Virus record (IMG/VR): IMGVR_UViG_3300021088_000001
Span: 13,272 to 77,271 of that record
Reading direction: 5' to 3' (one strand)
DNA: 64,000 nucleotides
Source of the DNA: a virus
Below, piece after piece: positions 1,347 through 33,427 of this stretch (positions within the stretch are counted from its first letter, which is position 1; every line of letters begins with the position of its first letter). The position numbers were made by a program, and so were the translations under genes. The notes under the pieces are model-generated. The model was not told the DNA's origin, made no database searches, and saw only the letters and a list, made by a program, of their open reading frames with translations.

Positions 1347-1738
1347 CAGCACGAAGTGAAATTGAGAATAGGCTGCTTGCTTGGGCCAATAGTAAATCCC
1401 CTCCAATTCCTATTGCATCTGAGAATTCTAAGTTCAAGAAGCCAACAGATGGCTCATGGTTAGAATTTGTGATGCTGAATGGTGTTCCTACAAATAGAAA
1501 TGTTGCAGCAGCAGGTTATAGGCTACGAGGCCAATTCCAGATAAATATATATGGCCCTGCAGGAATAGGGGCTGGAGGAATAGAGGAGTTGGCAAATGAG
1601 ATTGTGAATATCTTCCCTGTCATTCCTAAGATTGGAACAGTGAGTATTGAACAGCCTCTTAGTCCAGCACCTTTGATCACAACAATTGGAACTTCGGTAT
1701 GTATGCCGATTACAGGGAAGTATCGCATTGAATATTAA
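1343..1738 (+). CDS. Tail terminator protein
   Basis: ENSKFKKP..W..GQFQINIYGPAGIG pattern; position before the tail tube. Confidence 0.7.
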   Translation: MTARSEIENRLLAWANSKSPPIPIASENSKFKKPTDGSWLEFVMLNGVPTNRNVAAAGYRLRGQFQINIYGPAGIGAGGIEELANEIVNIFPVIPKIGTVSIEQPLSPAPLITTIGTSVCMPITGKYRIEY

Positions 1739-2796: not shown

Positions 2797-3192
2797 ATGT
2801 TTGATGTAAAAAGTCTAGCCATTCGTGACACATTTGTTCTTCATTTGAAACACCCTGTCACAGAGGATAACCTCTATGCAGATGAAGCTAAGAAACAACC
2901 TATCACTATCACACTGTCTTCTACGGCCTCTAAAGCATATCGCAAATTCGTGAATGCAATGCATGAACGTGCAATCAAGCGCGGCGTTAAGAAGCAGTCT
3001 GCAGAAGAGAAGCGCGCAGAAGGTGTAGAACTCTTGGTAGCCGTCTGTATCAGCTCTGAAAATCTTGTCTACAATAAACAGCCTGTGCAAACAGAGGCTG
3101 ACTTCCGTGCATTGCTTAGCGATGATACAGTAAGCTGGATCAAAGAGCAAGTAGATAATGCTCTTGGAGATAAAGAGCTTTTCATCGGCTAG
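2797..3192 (+). CDS. Tail assembly chaperone (G-like)
   Basis: LHLKHPVT motif; lies between tube and tape measure genes. Confidence 0.75.
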   Translation: MFDVKSLAIRDTFVLHLKHPVTEDNLYADEAKKQPITITLSSTASKAYRKFVNAMHERAIKRGVKKQSAEEKRAEGVELLVAVCISSENLVYNKQPVQTEADFRALLSDDTVSWIKEQVDNALGDKELFIG

Positions 3193-4471: not shown

Positions 4472-7400
4472 GCGAGGACATCTCAACGCTGATAATGCGC
4501 GTAATAAGTGATGGCATTAAGGATGGAACTAGCCAACTTAATGATCTCACTAAGGCTGCTGCATTGGCTGAAGGGGCTGCTAATAAGCTGGCCTCTACAA
4601 CTATTTCTGCTGGAGCTGCTACCAAGGGTGCCACTGCTGCTCAAACATCTGCTACAGCGGCTGTACAAGCTTCTACAGAGGTATTACGACAGCAGGCTAT
4701 TCAGCAGGCGAGGGATATAGAACTCCATAATCTCGCCGGGAAAGCCTATGCAGCAGAAGCTGCTGAAGCTTATAAAATGAACGCGGCTATTGACGCTGCC
4801 GCTAAAGGGCATACCTCTCTGGCTGGAGTCACTAGAGAAGTGATGGTATCTGTGCATGAAATTGCTATAGGGTCATTTAAACGGCTAGGTGGCACTTTAA
4901 TGGTGCTTGCTAATCAGTTTGGGCTTTTGGGCGCTGCAGTAGCAACATTCGGAGTAGTCACAATAGGTGCATTCGTGGCAATAGCTGCAGCAATCGGCTT
5001 ATTTGCTTTTGCAGCATACAAAGGTTATTCTGAATTAAAAACATTCAATGACCACTTGGCCCTCACTGGAAATTATGCAGGAGTCACTGCCAGCGGAATT
5101 GCTGAAATGGCTAAAACTATTTCCTTGCGTACTGGAGAGTCCACTGTAGATGTGCGTAAGATGGGCATGGCAATGGCTGAAACTGGTGTGTTCACTGAGT
5201 CCAGTATCAAAGTCGGTATGGGGGCTCTAACTACATATGCAAGACTCTCTGGCAAAACAGAGGAAGAAGTAGTGGCACATTTTGCTGGCATGAAAGATGG
5301 CGTCGCTAAGTGGATGATGGAGGAGGAGAAAACTGTTCCTGCTTTCACTGCTACCACTCTTGCTAAAGTAATGGATCTTGAGAAACTTGGCGAACATGCT
5401 AAGGCTGTAGAGTTAGCTATGACTGAGATGGGCGATTTTGTAGAGAAGAACAAACCTAAACTAAATGCTTTTGGAGAAGCTGTAAAATTTGTCGCCGATA
5501 TGTTTAAAGATTTGTGGCAAGGTATGAAAGACCTCACAAATGATGACTCTTTAGAAAAACAACTTGATAGAGCTAAAAAGCTTGCAGATGGATATTATAC
5601 ATTTGGAATAAAGTTTAGTGATGTGTCGACTAAATTAGCAAGTGCTGCTAAAGATAGTATCTCGAATATGCAGGATCAGATAGATGGACAGGGCGTGCTA
5701 AACGCCTTGATTGCAGATGAAACGGCCCATAAAAAAGAGGCACTAGACATAGCTGGCAAAGTACGAACTGCTGAAGATAAGAGAAACCTAGATCTAGAAA
5801 CCAGAGTTGATTTGATGAAGCGGATAAATACAGAGCTGGATAAAGAGGACACTGGAGCACTAACAGCCTTTCAGAAACAAGAGTACCTTAGAGAGCAACT
5901 CAAGCGATACGATGCTGCTCACAAAGTAGCTAAAGAAAAGGGAATGGACGATTCTAAGGCTCTCCGCGATATAGAACTTGAGCGCAATAAGCAATACTTT
6001 GCAGAAATTGCCCGTCAAGAGGATATGGATATTGCTCACTCCCTTTCTGTCGCAAACAAACAGCATGGCGACCAAGAGTACGAACTCACACAACGTGAAG
6101 CATTGTACGATAAGCGCATTGAAGATTTAAAAACAATGCACGATAAAGAGAAAGCTATCACTGATGCCTATGCTAATGAGAAACACACTCCTGTAGAACT
6201 TGCTCAGAATGCCCTTAAGGCTGAGCGTGAACTTAGCATATTCCAAGCTGCAAATGACGCTGTGGAGGCTCGTAGACAAGCTGATGAAGACTCTGTGGCT
6301 GCTAAAGAAACTCAGAGGCATGACCAAGCCATGAAGCACATTGAGTCTACCACTGGAGCTGAGCAGAAGAAACTTGAAGAAGAACTTAAGAATGACAAGC
6401 TCAAGGAACAAAGTATTGGGCAACTCAAGAGTGTGCAATTAGCTGCTCGTCAAGAGATGGAAATTACTCAGAACAAAGACTTAGCATTTAGAATAGAGAT
6501 TGCAAAATTTGCGCAAGAAGAGGCAATTTTGAATGGTAAGTTATCTCAAAATGAGATATCTGAAACCAATACACAAATTGCAGCTATGCAGAAGCTACTA
6601 GGAGTGCGTGAAGAAATTATCACATCTCTTGGTAAGCAGGTAGGACTTGAACAAGGTGTAGAGGCTTCTGCACGGATGACCAAAGATATTGACGATGCTC
6701 TCGCTAATGCTAAGCGTTTTGAAAAAGGAATGACTGCTGCATTTGGAAGTGTTGGCAAAGCAATTGGTGCAATGTCAGTTGCATTCCAGCAGCTTGCTAA
6801 AGATCAGGATATTGCACATCAGCAGTTCTTGAAAGCTTCTAAGGAAGATATTGCGTCTGGCAAAGCTAAGGCCGATTTACAAGCTGCAACAGCAGATGCA
6901 CAAATCACTGGATATGCTAATATCGCTCAAGCGGCTCAAGGAATGTTCGATAGTAACTCTAAGGGTTACGCTGCAATGGGTGCAATCTCTAAAGTGTTCC
7001 ATATAGCTGAGGCTATTATGAACGCTGAGAGAATGATTCAATTGGGTATTACTGCTGTCTTGAATCAAGGCCAAGGTGATCCATATTCTGCATTTGCACG
7101 TATGGCTGCAATGGCTGCAATTGTTGCAGGGCTAGGAGTTGCAATAGGTGGTGCTGGAGGTGGTGGCAATGCTCCAGACTCACATGCTGCAGCACAAGTT
7201 CAAGCAGCTCAAGGAACTGGTACAGTATTTGGAGACACTACAGCTAAATCTAACTCTATCGCCGACTCTCTGAAATTATTGCAAGCTAATTCAAACCTGA
7301 TGTTGCCATTGACTCAAAGCATGACTGGCTCATTGAAGAATATTGAGACATCAATGACAGGGCTGACTAATTTGATTATCAGAACTGCGGGTATTGCTAG

Positions 7401-28240: not shown

Positions 28241-29275
28241 TCAAAACGGCGCTTCGCTAAGATCCTCTTCTTCGACAACAGCAGGCTTCTTACTCTCCAC
28301 TTTCTTCTCTACACTCTTAGCAGGCTTAACACTACCGCCAAATGCTTCAGGATGCTTATCCTTAATCTCATTGAGGTCTTTATCATTCTCAATATTCTTC
28401 TGATGAATTTCCTTAGCTTTTTCAATAAGTTCTTTCTCGTCCATTCGTTCTTGAATGGCTTCTTGCATCTTAGTGCCAGCATAGTCGTCAGCCAACACAA
28501 TCTTCCGCAAATCAGCCAAACGAATCAAATCAAACTTAGCAACATTCCCGAGTTCTTCCTTGACTTCCAGCAGGTCTTCATCATCGAACCCAATTGAAAT
28601 AGCAGGAATAAGAGCTTCTGGAGCATTCATACCCTTCATCAAAGGTACTGGTGATTTAAGCTTGACATTGACATATTTATTATCTTCTTTTGTAGTCTCA
28701 GTAACTTCTACATTGTACATGAATGGCTTGCCAAGCAACAAATCAATGTTGTTGTGATTAGGATTCTTGTAATCAGCTTTAAAAATTTTATCTGAAAGCT
28801 TATTTCCTGATTCGTCTTTAGCGCTATCTGCAATCTTCTTCCAGATAGAAGTAGAAGCAAGACTCCAAGGTTTTCCCTTGATATACTCACCATCTGGTGT
28901 ACGAGGAGCCACTGTGACAAAGTTAACACCTTCACTCACTCCGCGCATCACTTGATGCAATGGCAAGCGAATATTCTTGACACCAATGTCACCTTCATAG
29001 TCGTGCGTCTGTGTAAGCAAGTCTACATACACTCCAACACGTTGCTCAAGGTCTTTTCCTTCTTTGGGAAAGAGAATCTTGTCATTTCCATCTTCATCTT
29101 GTTCCCGTTTTCCATTAGAATCTTTTGCAAACTTTGGCAGCTTCTTGTGCATTCCTAGATTGACAAGCAAGCCTACGTGCACTGGCTGCAGGCCATCTTC
29201 TGGAGTGATTGTTACGAATGGTTTACGATCTGCTGGATCTGTTTCTGGTCTATTTGACTTCGGTGTAAATGCCAT
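28241..29275 (-). CDS. Probable single-stranded DNA-binding protein
   Basis: Replication context; LLGKPFM beta motif; acidic tail ending EEEDLSEAPF. Confidence 0.6.
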   Translation of the reverse strand: MAFTPKSNRPETDPADRKPFVTITPEDGLQPVHVGLLVNLGMHKKLPKFAKDSNGKREQDEDGNDKILFPKEGKDLEQRVGVYVDLLTQTHDYEGDIGVKNIRLPLHQVMRGVSEGVNFVTVAPRTPDGEYIKGKPWSLASTSIWKKIADSAKDESGNKLSDKIFKADYKNPNHNNIDLLLGKPFMYNVEVTETTKEDNKYVNVKLKSPVPLMKGMNAPEALIPAISIGFDDEDLLEVKEELGNVAKFDLIRLADLRKIVLADDYAGTKMQEAIQERMDEKELIEKAKEIHQKNIENDKDLNEIKDKHPEAFGGSVKPAKSVEKKVESKKPAVVEEEDLSEAPF

Positions 29276-29346
29276 AGTGTTTTCCTTTATGTTAGTGTGC
29301 ATAATCAGCACGGATGTTATTGTCGTTGGACAATGTTGAATTTAAA

Positions 29347-29561
29347 TCAGATGGCAGGTACTGTAATTCCTGCATCCTGTGTTAATTGAAGGAGATGCGT
29401 ATTCTCTCTACATCAGGTCCAGTTCCCAATGCCAATTTCGAATTACTTAGAGTATATATAGATAAGAAAACAAGGGTTACACTGGCTCTACTTGTTTATC
29501 CCTCCTTATACTGCTCTCACAGGTCAATCTTACTCGTGTATCAGTCTACACATTCATCTGA
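29347..29561 (-). ncRNA. C4/CI/IsrK-like structured RNA with large insert
   Basis: TCAGATG/CATCTGA closing stem; GTGTA-GACTGA-TACAC and GCAGG-AATTACAGTA-CCTGC hairpins with complementary loops. Confidence 0.7.
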
Positions 29562-29565
29562 AGCT

Positions 29566-29642
29566 TGGTGGGCCTTGCTGGACTTGAACCAGCACTCTCC
29601 GAATTATGAGTTCGATACATTCACCAATTATGTTAAAGGCCC
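29566..29642 (-). tRNA. tRNA with CAU anticodon, Ile2 (lysidine) type more likely than Met
   Basis: GGGCC acceptor; CTCATAA loop; GCTGGTTCAAGTCCAGC T-arm resembling ileX; CCA. Confidence 0.85.
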
Positions 29643-29648
29643 AAATAT

Positions 29649-29723
29649 TGGCAGGACTGACAGGACTCAAACCTGCATGCTATCGAGTAGAAATCGATTG
29701 CTGTTTCATTCAGCTACAGTCCT
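29649..29723 (-). tRNA. tRNA-Arg(UCU) with atypical D and T loops
   Basis: AGGACTG/CAGTCCT acceptor; ATCGA-TTTCTAC-TCGAT; GCCA end. Confidence 0.8.
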
Positions 29724-29744
29724 ATATTAGTTCCTTGTCTTGCT

Positions 29745-29773
29745 ATTATACTTCAATTTATTTCCCGTGTCAA
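29745..29773 (-). promoter_or_regulatory. Consensus promoter for the tRNA/ncRNA/SSB transcript
   Basis: TTGACA-17-TATAAT. Confidence 0.85.
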
Positions 29774-29783
29774 GCTAAATATT

Positions 29784-30068
29784 TTATTTCTTTCGAGGAA
29801 TATAAAAGACATTCTCGGAATTCTGTATTTTGTCTCCATCATACAATTCTGCATGTTTCAGTGCTTTAATCGGAATGTATCTTCCGTTGTAAACTGTACT
29901 TCCCTCTGAATAAGGGCCATGCGATAGCCGTTTATCAAGGTTTATATTGTCAACAATAAATGTTTCTCCAATGAGCTTATTGTCATCAATAGTTTTCTTG
30001 CTGATACCTGCTGCTATTAGGACTTCGTAGTTTGCAATAGCAACTATGTCGTCTAGGTTAATCCTCAC
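29784..30068 (-). CDS. Hypothetical protein
   Basis: ORF overlapping the upstream stop. Confidence 0.55.
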   Translation of the reverse strand: MRINLDDIVAIANYEVLIAAGISKKTIDDNKLIGETFIVDNINLDKRLSHGPYSEGSTVYNGRYIPIKALKHAELYDGDKIQNSENVFYIPRKK

Positions 30069-31460: not shown

Positions 31461-32048
31461 TCAATGAATATCTGAATATTTTTTTCCAAAATTTATTTCA
31501 CAAGCTAACTCACGATTCAATTTTAACTGATCATTTACTTTTTGAAGCGAGTCTGCAACAAGTTGCCTATACACCTCTTGCTTATCTTCATCAATAGAAA
31601 GGACTAGCTCATCGTGTGCTTGAAATGCTAAATTATACTCCAGACCCCTCTGCTTTGCAAGCCTTTCGCAATAGTATAGCCACAAATCTAGAATATACGC
31701 ACCAGTTCCCTGAATCAGCGTTGAAAACCTATCCTTATCTGCGCGTAATGAATAGTACATCTTAGAAATAGGATTATATTGCCACATGCCCGAAGATGTA
31801 TTCACAACATGAGTCATCTTCGATATTTGTCCAATACTCCAATTCAACTTATGATACCCTGCATGAAGCTGTTTTGCAAGAGACGTTTCAATCTTAGCTG
31901 TTCTGGCAAGAGTTTTTACTCCACTGCCATATTGGCACGCATAATTTGTGGATTTTCCTGTAGCCCTCACTGCATCAAGCCTCTTGAATAATTCTTCTTG
32001 CTCTTTCTCAGGAAGATTGGTCATATCTGATAATGTAAGTGCTGTCAT
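31461..32048 (-). CDS. Family A DNA polymerase, C-terminal part (motifs B and C)
   Basis: RATGKSTNYACQYG, STLIQGTGA, QAHDE. Confidence 0.92.
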   Translation of the reverse strand: MTALTLSDMTNLPEKEQEELFKRLDAVRATGKSTNYACQYGSGVKTLARTAKIETSLAKQLHAGYHKLNWSIGQISKMTHVVNTSSGMWQYNPISKMYYSLRADKDRFSTLIQGTGAYILDLWLYYCERLAKQRGLEYNLAFQAHDELVLSIDEDKQEVYRQLVADSLQKVNDQLKLNRELACEINFGKKYSDIH

Positions 32049-33427
32049 TTATGTTTCCTCTTATACCATTTATAGAATTCCATCTCGGCTGGAGACATCA
32101 AACCTGCAGCCACAGCAATCGTCATATGTGGGTCAAATCCATCCTCCATCTGAGTTTTCACATACTTGGGATCAATCGGCATCTGAAAATGGTGCTTGAG
32201 CCTGTCTTCTAAGGATGATAGATCTGAACCAAGTAACACTTTACCGGAACGTGCAATTAGTAGCCCTCGAATCTCTTCTCCATATTTCACACGAACACTT
32301 GGCAGATTCACGATTTGGCGATGCTGAATTCTTAAAGTATTTGTCAGACCACCAATATCTGCAAAAAGTTCACCGTCAATTTGATCTCGCAAGAATCCTT
32401 TTACAAGGCTATTCCTATGGTTAAGAATTCCCAATCCTGCAATATACTCTATTCCTGCACATTTAGGAAGCAGATCTTTGACAGACTGGCAAATCTCCCC
32501 ACCTTTGAGATTGATCTGTGGGATATTCCTCACTTCGCCATCGTCATCTTTAACATATTTGAATGTTTCTGGAATCCACCCTAGCGAATCTAGCCAAGCT
32601 TTCATTTGTGTATGGCTAGAGGGATTACCAATCTTATAAGAAAGAACGACTTCTATATCATCTTTATGCTCAAATGGAAGCCCTAAGCCCTCTGTCAGAG
32701 CCTTCCAATTCTCTCCTGATGCTGAGAGATCACCATTCTTTTTAAATGGTTTGGCAGGCCGTTTACGCTTAGCTGTGACAGGAACTTTAGGCATCACTTC
32801 TTTCAGAGCTTCCACCTTAATCTCAATCTCTTTCTCAAGCTGCAATTGCAATTCTTCCGCAGCCGTAACGTCTAGTGTAAACTTGTTCACTTGCTGCTGA
32901 CGATATTCTTCCATCTTTTGCATGAGATAATTGATAATACGATCAAAGTCTCTCTGATCGTCGCCAATAATTTGCTTCAATCGTTTGACTTGTCTAATCC
33001 AGAGCATTTTCTGAATCTTGCAGTCTTCTTTGACACGATGATTATATTCTTCCTGAGTTTGATTCTCCCAATCTTCAATTACAAGCTTAGGAATTCCAAA
33101 TTCTTCACCATACTCACCAAGGCCATGTTTTATGCGAGTTGGTTCTAGATACCAGCTAAGTGCCAGTGTGTCAATTATTTTGATCTTACTAATATCATAT
33201 CCAAGAAGGGTTAAAGCTTCGCCATCAAACATCTTACCATTATGTATGATAAACGTGTGCCCTTGGTCAAGCCAATTCTGCACAGCATTCTTGTCAGAGC
33301 CTTCAATTAAAATGCATTCATTAGAGTCAATTGCTAAGCTGCAGATGTTATGCAGCTTAGGGTTTTCCTGCTTCTTCATATCCTCCAACAAACCACTTGT
33401 TTCTATATCCGAGGCATAAAAAGCCAT
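32045..33427 (-). CDS. Family A DNA polymerase, N-terminal part (3-prime exonuclease plus motif A)
   Basis: DIET, HNGKMFD, DTL, NLPS, GSDLSSLEDR, DPH. Confidence 0.92.
   Translation of the reverse strand: MAFYASDIETSGLLEDMKKQENPKLHNICSLAIDSNECILIEGSDKNAVQNWLDQGHTFIIHNGKMFDGEALTLLGYDISKIKIIDTLALSWYLEPTRIKHGLGEYGEEFGIPKLVIEDWENQTQEEYNHRVKEDCKIQKMLWIRQVKRLKQIIGDDQRDFDRIINYLMQKMEEYRQQQVNKFTLDVTAAEELQLQLEKEIEIKVEALKEVMPKVPVTAKRKRPAKPFKKNGDLSASGENWKALTEGLGLPFEHKDDIEVVLSYKIGNPSSHTQMKAWLDSLGWIPETFKYVKDDDGEVRNIPQINLKGGEICQSVKDLLPKCAGIEYIAGLGILNHRNSLVKGFLRDQIDGELFADIGGLTNTLRIQHRQIVNLPSVRVKYGEEIRGLLIARSGKVLLGSDLSSLEDRLKHHFQMPIDPKYVKTQMEDGFDPHMTIAVAAGLMSPAEMEFYKWYKRKHK

Follow-up and report, generated by a model that had tools for sequence, protein, structure and literature searches.

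A putative tRNA-shaped small-RNA gene with kissing loops behind the tRNA genes of a phage, and the uncatalogued family to which it belongs

Immediately behind two tRNA genes of a phage genome, on the same strand, lies a stretch of 215 nt that can be folded into a closing stem around hairpins. Is this an RNA gene, and if so, to which of the known phage RNAs does it correspond? The initial annotation, made from the sequence alone, had likened it to the C4/P4-CI/IsrK RNAs, which are known mainly for immunity in temperate phages. By comparative sequence analysis, the flagged stretch is a conserved small-RNA gene, predicted to be tRNA-shaped and to be held together by a loop-loop kiss. It is best described as a divergent, long-insert member of an RNA family other than C4, with the GACUGA/CAGUA loop subtype.

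The element and its surroundings

The window, by which we mean the whole 64,000-nt stretch of DNA that was analyzed, comes from a source record of 77,271 bp that represents a complete virus with direct terminal repeats. On the minus strand, a promoter, tRNA-Arg(TCT), tRNA(CAT), the element, a 72-nt leader, and a 344-aa gene follow each other in this order. The features are listed below; R1 is a covariance model built from eight members of the family on other contigs, with the window excluded.

29745 to 29773, minus strand: sigma-70-type promoter TTGACA-17-TATAAT, 12 of 12 consensus positions, a consensus match only
29649 to 29723, minus strand: tRNA-Arg (anticodon TCT), found by ARAGORN; 59.8 bits with Rfam tRNA
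29566 to 29642, minus strand: tRNA with anticodon CAT (Met or Ile2), found by ARAGORN; 69.8 bits with Rfam tRNA
29347 to 29561, minus strand: whole element, 215 nt, full-length R1 match, single copy in the genome
29555 to 29561, minus strand: closing stem 5' strand UCAGAUG, acceptor-like, pairing with 29347 to 29353
29552 to 29554, minus strand: AAU linker, invariant in the seed alignment and AAU in 132 of 171 distinct candidates
29536 to 29551, minus strand: hairpin 1, GUGUA-GACUGA-UACAC, in the D-arm position, read from the sequence
29542 to 29545, minus strand: loop-1 half of the kiss, ACUG, with its partner CAGU at 29360 to 29363
29374 to 29535, minus strand: hypervariable insert, 162 nt, in the anticodon-arm position, with stems predicted by folding
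29354 to 29373, minus strand: hairpin 3, GCAGG-AAUUACAGUA-CCUGC, in the T-arm position, adjoining the closing stem directly
29347 to 29353, minus strand: closing stem 3' strand CAUCUGA, read from the sequence and from the R1 alignment
28241 to 29275, minus strand: downstream 344-aa gene, phrog_2544, function unassigned, starting 72 nt past the element

The closing stem, the two hairpins, and the ACUG/CAGU complementarity that the initial annotation had pointed out are all found on the minus strand where it had placed them. At the DNA level, hairpin 3 reads GCAGG-AATTACAGTA-CCTGC (29373 to 29354), and its loop has 10 nt versus 9 in the family, a difference of a single additional A. The kiss would comprise 4 bp (ACUG/CAGU) versus 5 bp in most members, and its code is A:U, as expected for the GACUGA subtype. 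The base before the closing stem is U (29562), the 3' flank UUUAAAUU is free of ACC, and the insert contains UAAGGAGG at 29508 to 29501. Two stems that had been noticed within the insert, CCTGTG/CACAGG and AAACAAG/CTTGTTT, both recur as predictions in the MFE fold. The fold energy of the whole 215 nt is unexceptional and no stronger than that of shuffled sequence (z = -1.27), and the case for an RNA gene therefore rests on comparison across sequences. R1 matched 29347 to 29561 on the minus strand with 36.4 bits (E = 3.2e-7, model positions 1 to 119), and this was the only credible match both in the 64-kb window and in the whole 77-kb genome.

The spacer between the CCA end of tRNA(CAT) and the element is 4 nt (AGCT), just as the initial annotation had it. 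This tRNA, which the initial annotation had named Ile, is Met or Ile2 by its CAT anticodon; counterparts in similar Vibrio phage records are labelled Ile in some and Met in others. No terminator-like site was found on the minus strand from the promoter to the downstream gene. Together with the perfect promoter, this agrees with the view that a structured RNA gene lies on the tRNA strand as if it were the next gene in the array. The only public sequencing run that matched is one of soil-metagenome DNA; no RNA sequencing run with the window sequence was found.

The host of the element was described from the start as a lytic phage, a description that is borne out by the lack of any integrase in the phage genome, tyrosine integrases included, and by a phage polymerase whose nearest relatives are polymerases of virulent phages. 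The element is likewise without antirepressor context. The phrog_2544 gene downstream sits within the replication module, and homologous loci are present in seven phage contigs at 63 to 71% amino acid identity. Inspected by eye, none of these seven contigs has the element at the same place beside the phrog_2544 homologue. Among the eight related phages with this gene, the window included, an intact element occurs only in the window and in L006, where the copy has a different position, directly behind its own consensus promoter (R1 match). With intact copies in only two of eight related phages, the element is therefore dispensable in this lineage.

Covariation and spread of the family

Relatives were found by motif searches. 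A 16-mer from hairpin 1 led to an unrelated 92-kb phage, L128, with the same layout around a 56-nt insert and with closing-stem and hairpin-3 sequences that differ from those of the window. A degenerate pattern of the 5' module returned 12 viral loci, and an exact 19-mer returned 11 metagenome contigs. At all loci but L136 and L155, the 7 nt before AAU complement the 7 nt past a 5-bp hairpin with the loop AGWUCAGUA; these 3' features (closing strand and hairpin 3) were outside the search patterns. A pattern of the 3' module returned at least 120 viral loci, most of which carry AAU-GCGCA-GGCUGA-UGCGC, and a search with this 19-mer returned at least 120 species genomes. Among the genomes listed are those of Kosakonia, Citrobacter, Klebsiella, Enterobacter, Pseudomonas, Xanthomonas, Burkholderia, and other genera. 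R1 gave 71 matches in 70 of the first 100 listed genome loci; at lengths of 70 to 197 nt, these bacterial-genome members place the long window insert in the upper range without making it unique. Over all loci gathered, we count at least 161 distinct members with a CAG loop.

Only chance matches were obtained in blastn searches of cultured phages with the window element or L128, and the same was true of a search with the 14-mer GGAATTACAGTACC. Rfam 15 has no matching family, whether for the window at the gathering threshold, for the region at E <= 10, for L128, or for 11 mainstream loci at E <= 0.1, and a full-text literature search on sequence strings of the family found no paper. We conclude that these candidates form a large, uncatalogued RNA family in phages and prophages of Proteobacteria, P1 included, as judged by sequence and predicted fold. 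One member has been published so far (sRNA-17, discussed below); the family itself is uncatalogued.

The family layout consists of a 7-bp closing stem, AAU, a 5-bp hairpin with the loop G(G/A)CUGA, the insert, and a 5-bp hairpin with the loop AGWUCAGYA. With nothing between it and the closing stem, the latter, T-arm-like hairpin adds to that stem to make a stack of 12 bp, the same length as in tRNA. Of the cells in the seed alignment, 98.9% pair, and both sides vary at 13 of the 22 base pairs; none of 500 shuffles was as good, and slid controls were only 25 to 40% paired. The bacterial-genome set, selected by the 5' 19-mer alone, contains 69 distinct members, again 98.9% paired, with changes on both sides at 16 of 17 pairs. 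Its closing stem and hairpin 3 are paired at 98 to 99%, compared to 30 to 46% for slid controls; fitting this alignment to the model favors the structure, but the margin is large. The covariation among homologues that had been proposed as a check on the initial annotation is thus present, alongside the covariance-model match to the window itself.

Across the family, both sides change at all 7 pairs of the closing stem, and 85 different closing-stem sequences occur among the 171 distinct candidates. The stem of hairpin 1 covaries through the variants GCGCA, GCGUA, GUGUA, GCAUA, and GCACA around a loop that is GGCUGA in 136 candidates and GACUGA in 30. Loop 3 is AGAUCAGUA, AGAUCAGCA, or AGUUCAGUA, and the stem of hairpin 3 covaries as well. 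The two loops also vary together, in that an A or G at loop-1 position 2 goes with a U or C, respectively, behind the CAG of loop 3. Among members retrieved by a GACUGA loop 1, loop 3 reads CAGU 14 times and CAGC once; among those retrieved by GGCUGA, the counts are 61 for CAGC and 8 for CAGU. This is a switch between an A:U and a G:C kiss from subtype to subtype (Fisher's test, p = 1.4e-9). In a tandem paralogue (L156, positions 1559 to 1709), GACGA:UCGUC replaces ACUGA:UCAGU, which amounts to three double changes. Subtype covariation and these double changes uphold the earlier suggestion that the loops can kiss, and the conserved hairpin loops are accordingly predicted to pair with each other in a kiss of 4 to 5 bp. 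A family that is common, and in which every helix and the tertiary kiss covary, is yet absent from Rfam 15; its fold ranks among the better supported of RNA structures outside the catalogue.

The part of the element that does vary freely is the insert. A hypervariable insert takes the anticodon-arm position in the family, and the suggestion of a scaffold that presents a variable insert fits this anatomy. Insert lengths lie between 19 and 250 nt (median, 77; window, 162), and the smallest members, of about 70 to 77 nt, are four-arm cloverleaves. We found no homologue of the window's 162-nt insert in about 400 loci. The initial annotation had proposed that antisense targets be sought, and in the phage genome and the flanks none emerged beyond chance. 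The longest antisense match of the element in its own genome is 12 nt, compared to 12 to 13 nt for shuffled sequence, and pairing of inserts with their 150-nt flanks in 81 to 83 members is at chance level (mean z of -0.2 and -0.5). The hypervariable insert could simply be unconstrained. A coding or tag reading of the element was rejected; frames from the invariant AUG stop after 7, 10, or 33 and more codons depending on the member, and there is no tag-like frame.

Members occur in varied surroundings. Virulent-type contigs with a member are diverse, 43 to 140 kb in size, and carry one copy each. Erwinia phage 59 has its member flanked by the repressor block and the N operon. An E. coli prophage has one ahead of Rad52/ssb, and others are found in late leaders, between NinG and endolysin. 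The P1 member (69819 to 69916) belongs to the ban operon, with tRNA-Asn/Thr on one side and tciABC-tRNA-Ile2 on the other, and a P1-type copy, unannotated there, is found in 547 of 5,426 complete E. coli genomes. No conserved protein neighbor was identified: virulent-type loci have only a mobile HNH endonuclease in common, and prophage members have the usual repressor/RecT/RecE or NinG/endolysin modules next to them.

The GACUGA subtype often lies within tRNA arrays of large phage contigs, and 7 of 26 members of this type have a tRNA within 100 nt. Where a tRNA is present within 2 kb of a member of the family, it is on the same strand in all 24 cases. The exact 19-mer of the GACUGA type had no match in 185,579 species genomes, and this subtype is therefore unseen in prophages of those genomes. 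The family as a whole is not limited to temperate phages, one loop-code subtype being found in the tRNA arrays of virulent phages; this speaks for a role in lytic growth and not in immunity. At the boundaries of the fold, U occupies position -1 in 90 of the 161 distinct members (56%), and the 3' tail is A/C-rich and G-poor; 51 of 161 (32%) have an ACC no more than 5 nt away.

Comparison with C4, tRNAs, and other small RNAs

The family shares some general features with C4/CI (RF01695, clan CL00128): both are phage small RNAs that derive from operon leaders and have a terminal stem around hairpins. C4 and CI are reportedly substrates of RNase P, a result credited to Hartmann and coworkers in 1995. 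The kinship with C4/P4-CI/IsrK that had been proposed for the element did not survive comparison with the Rfam models. Neither C4 (RF01695; gathering threshold, 45 bits) nor isrK (RF01394; 50 bits) matched positions 29200 to 29800 at E <= 10, and RF01695 did not match anywhere in the whole phage genome. In positive controls, the C4 model gave 68.8 bits for P1 and 74.9 bits for P4, and the isrK model gave 60.8 bits for P4. Rfam scans of the window, L128, and the 11 mainstream loci gave no match to C4, isrK, c4-a1b1, or STnc100, and conversely R1 had no match at the C4/CI loci of P1 and P4.

The architecture also differs. C4 has a closing stem of about 17 bp, a hairpin with a UUCG-type tetraloop followed directly by the second hairpin, and a single-stranded 3' linker, whereas the window element has a 7-bp closing stem plus AAU, hairpins 162 nt apart, and a last hairpin that abuts the stem. 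The loops of C4 pair with a1/b1 (upstream) and a2/b2 (the ribosome-binding site of the next gene) in the transcript, but the conserved loops of the window element pair mutually, and no target was found for them in the flanks or the genome. C4 is located in the immunity region of temperate phages before icd/antirepressor, while the window element precedes phrog_2544 in a phage without an integrase. P1 holds both a C4 (48343 to 48419) and a member of the family (69819 to 69916), and since they occupy different loci, they are distinct genes. Membership in C4/P4-CI/IsrK was thus rejected, given the lack of a covariance-model match in either direction and the other architecture. The motifs GCGCA-GGCUGA-UGCGC and GCCGG..UCAGCA-CCGGC, which the initial annotation had given as those of C4, instead correspond to the majority consensus of the uncatalogued family described here. 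Filing the element as non-C4 prevents a wrong annotation as an "immunity RNA."

The predicted shape resembles that of tRNA, tmRNA, YrlA, and viral tRNA-like structures in its 7-bp acceptor-like stem and stacked 5-bp T-like arm. As in tRNA, a D-like loop would contact a T-like loop, and as in tmRNA, a large insert replaces the anticodon arm. On the other hand, the family has no GG or TPsiC loop consensus, and its elbow is a Watson-Crick kiss; an anticodon arm, a G3:U70 pair, and a conserved CCA are all lacking. ARAGORN, Rfam tRNA (RF00005), and tmRNA searches left the element uncalled, and no tag-like frame was seen. By context, the closest analogues are T4 rnaC and rnaD (species 1 and 2), small non-tRNA RNAs that end the tRNA cluster of T4, which is a virulent phage like that of the window. 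To our knowledge, their function is still unknown. Kinship with them was rejected, as R1 with filters off reached at best 7.7 bits on the T4 tRNA region.

The one published RNA that we can connect with the family is sRNA-17 of E. coli K1 RS218, which is 193 nt long by RACE and was seen on a Northern blot (PMC7719688). Its deletion changed about 48 transcripts, and its authors presented it as an ArcA-regulated sRNA of the ordinary kind, with no mechanism or direct target given (PMC7719688). The primer CGTTGTGGTGAATGCGCAGGCTGATGCGCGAAA (PMC7719688) holds the 5' module of the family, UGUGGUG-AAU-GCGCA-GGCUGA-UGCGC, and judged from this published primer, sRNA-17 is a member of the same family by sequence. 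It is prophage-borne, absent from Rfam, and of the mainstream GGCUGA code in a temperate context, whereas the window element is of the GACUGA code. The tRNA-shaped fold, the kiss, and the wider family were not recognized in that work (PMC7719688). The primer begins 3 nt upstream of the stem, and the RNA extends roughly 70 to 90 nt beyond it. With such ends, it could be a primary transcript at least as readily as a product of tRNA-like excision.

A proposed role and its rivals

On balance, we favor a reading in which the family provides a tRNA-like scaffold that is cut from the tRNA transcript, is stable, and carries a specific activity in its variable insert. The element would be transcribed from the promoter at 29773 along with tRNA-Arg and tRNA(CAT), and the tRNA-processing nucleases of the host would excise it as if it were a further tRNA. 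RNase P would cut at the boundary between U(-1) and the stem, and the AU-rich 3' side would be trimmed. For cleavage by RNase P, we infer this from the shape and the U(-1) bias; transcription, processing, and stability of the window RNA are likewise inferred from its sequence. The excised RNA would accumulate in a compact and stable form. Its conserved scaffold would keep it stable and let a conserved host factor recognize it, and the variable insert, which differs between phages, would most likely bind or titrate a host RNA or protein. The A/C-rich 3' tail and the nearby ACC of some members are further hints of such processing. Several observations weigh against this reading: the window element is without the ACC, its loop 3 contains the additional A, its kiss would have only 4 bp, the ends of sRNA-17 suit a primary transcript at least equally well, and most close relatives do without the element.

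A bolder version of this proposal, to which we assign only a low probability, is that a single kiss-locked, tRNA-mimicking scaffold across phages of Proteobacteria displays a fast-evolving RNA cargo that acts as a decoy or guide. If so, each phage would direct its own cargo against some RNA or protein of the host or against a defense system, and the 162-nt insert of the window would be an effector delivered early, together with the phage tRNAs, by a virulent soil phage. Such a scaffold would be a natural counterpart of the laboratory "tRNA scaffold."

The main rival, which we regard as unlikely but still worth weighing, is that the element works as processing punctuation. In that case the fold would recruit RNase P or other tRNA nucleases to separate the tRNAs from the downstream mRNA in a polycistronic transcript, setting the ends and stability of neighboring RNAs, while the excised RNA would be functionless and the insert filler. 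The 12-bp acceptor/T-like stack, the U(-1) bias, and the A/C-rich 3' tail are what such a signal would need, and members always lie on the operon strand, at operon heads or inside tRNA arrays. An essentially free length and sequence of the insert, the failure to find a target, and the dispensability of the element among close relatives also speak for filler. However, mere cleavage does not need near-constant loops or a compensated kiss, the ordinary tRNAs of an array already supply cleavage sites, and sRNA-17 accumulates as a discrete RNA whose deletion alters host expression (PMC7719688). The reading as an immunity antisense RNA of the C4/P4-CI type, whose loops would block the ribosome-binding site of the next gene, is far less probable and has been largely refuted as to membership. 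It draws on the multihairpin form with a terminal stem in an operon leader, and on temperate-phage members next to the repressor, where the early-left operon begins. Yet C4 and isrK are silent here at E <= 10, as is R1 at the P1 and P4 C4/CI loci, P1 carries both RNAs separately, and the conserved loops pair mutually. The complementarity of inserts to flanks and phage genome is at chance level, and the phage has neither an integrase nor an antirepressor context.

The kiss itself allows another geometry. In phi29 pRNA, two loops whose complementarity is maintained by covariation pair hand in hand between molecules, and this RNA serves DNA packaging in small protein-primed phages. Covariation is blind to whether pairing is intra- or intermolecular, so the loops of the family could in principle join separate molecules into dimers or rings that act as an assembly. 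The orthogonal loop code of the tandem paralogue L156 is also what two separate assemblies would need. We nevertheless think such assembly improbable, as both hairpins leave the same junction at the D- and T-arm positions, where their loops would meet within one molecule. Genomes carry a single copy, no association with packaging genes was seen, and the context of pRNA is absent here. Lower still is the chance that the locus is the remnant of a tRNA gene, or acts at the level of DNA (for example as a recombination site or an origin), with no role as RNA. Its tRNA-like dimensions and tRNA-array location, together with the silence of ARAGORN and Rfam tRNA, would suit a relic. But the loops are conserved and yet not tRNA-like, the helices are compensated in at least 161 distinct members, and the G-U pairs work only on the minus (transcribed) strand, the element being always on the transcribed strand. 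Since compensatory changes keep every helix, a pseudogene is unlikely.

The scaffold with a variable insert, which we prefer to these alternatives, can be approached in well-known organisms. P1 and E. coli carry members, which makes the function of the family directly testable at the bench. The conserved loop sequences are near constant from soil phages to P1, and the P1 member is overlapped by doubtful antisense ORFs.

Units adjoining members of the RNA family

Several family members carry a second structured unit, itself repeated (ACGCATGGGGAYTG ... CAGTCYCCAGCCGTGT), immediately 5' of the kissing-loop, tRNA-shaped element, and at one locus (L134) it occurs on both sides. Across the family, the upstream bias toward YCCGU at positions -5 to -1 may represent the 3' end of this unit.

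Occurrences of the second structured unit
L134:6100-6192 and 6320-6410, on either side of the element
L135, L137, L151, and L344, upstream of the element

tRNA-like units, in which an acceptor-type stem is accompanied by a hairpin resembling a T arm, adjoin promoters or the element at three loci, where ARAGORN made no call for them.

tRNA-like units
L002:2510-2620
L006:2030-2110, T-arm-like hairpin GGGAG-TTTGATT-CTCCC
L128:6517-6600 (-)

Two family members stand in tandem in L156, at 1559-1709 (-) beside 1418-1549 (-); their kissing codes differ and are mutually orthogonal (GACGA:UCGUC and ACUGA:UCAGU). In the viral contig L185, an abiF RNA motif lies a few bases 3' of a family member, and together they may form an RNA-only accessory island.

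L185:1269-1305 (+), abiF RNA motif (Rfam RF03085), 55.2 bits

The family member of P1 (69819-69916) is overlapped by the annotated genes plp and upl, and these open reading frame (ORF) calls may be spurious.

NC_005856 69472-70041 (L401:873-1442), plp and upl, on the strand opposite the ban operon

The phrog_2544 gene region in the window and in relatives

Seven of seven relatives have a short hairpin closely preceding the phrog_2544 ribosome-binding site; its loop is conserved and its stem covaries. It is usually flanked by AGCC on the 5' side and an A/T-rich stretch on the 3' side, and it may be a phage-specific promoter, terminator, or leader element. Relatives' versions include TGCAC-GGCTTT-GTGCA, GTGCT-GGCTCT-AGCAC, CACAT-GGCTT-ATGTG, and GCGC-GGCTTT-GCGC.

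Window 29297-29311 (-), hairpin GTGC-TGATTAT-GCAC
L002-L008, about 2940-2990, hairpin about 30 to 60 nt before the gene start

One relative that lacks the element, L004, carries at 2885-2905 (+) an 11-mer, GAATTACAGTA, identical to loop 3 of the window copy (the loop of the T-arm-position hairpin). This 11-mer lies 3 nt past the CCA end of tRNA(CAT), at the matching position, and may be the remnant of a deleted element copy.

Other features of the window

Two ORFs, one directly after the other and overlapping, encode the DNA polymerase; their matches fall on successive stretches of a single PHROG, phrog_17 (profile positions 671-1063 and 1043-1230). Inside the element's insert, a perfect extended Shine-Dalgarno sequence, UAAGGAGG, lacks a start codon at the customary spacing and is partly paired in the predicted fold.

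31461-32048 and 32045-33427 (-), DNA polymerase ORFs
29501-29508 (-), Shine-Dalgarno sequence
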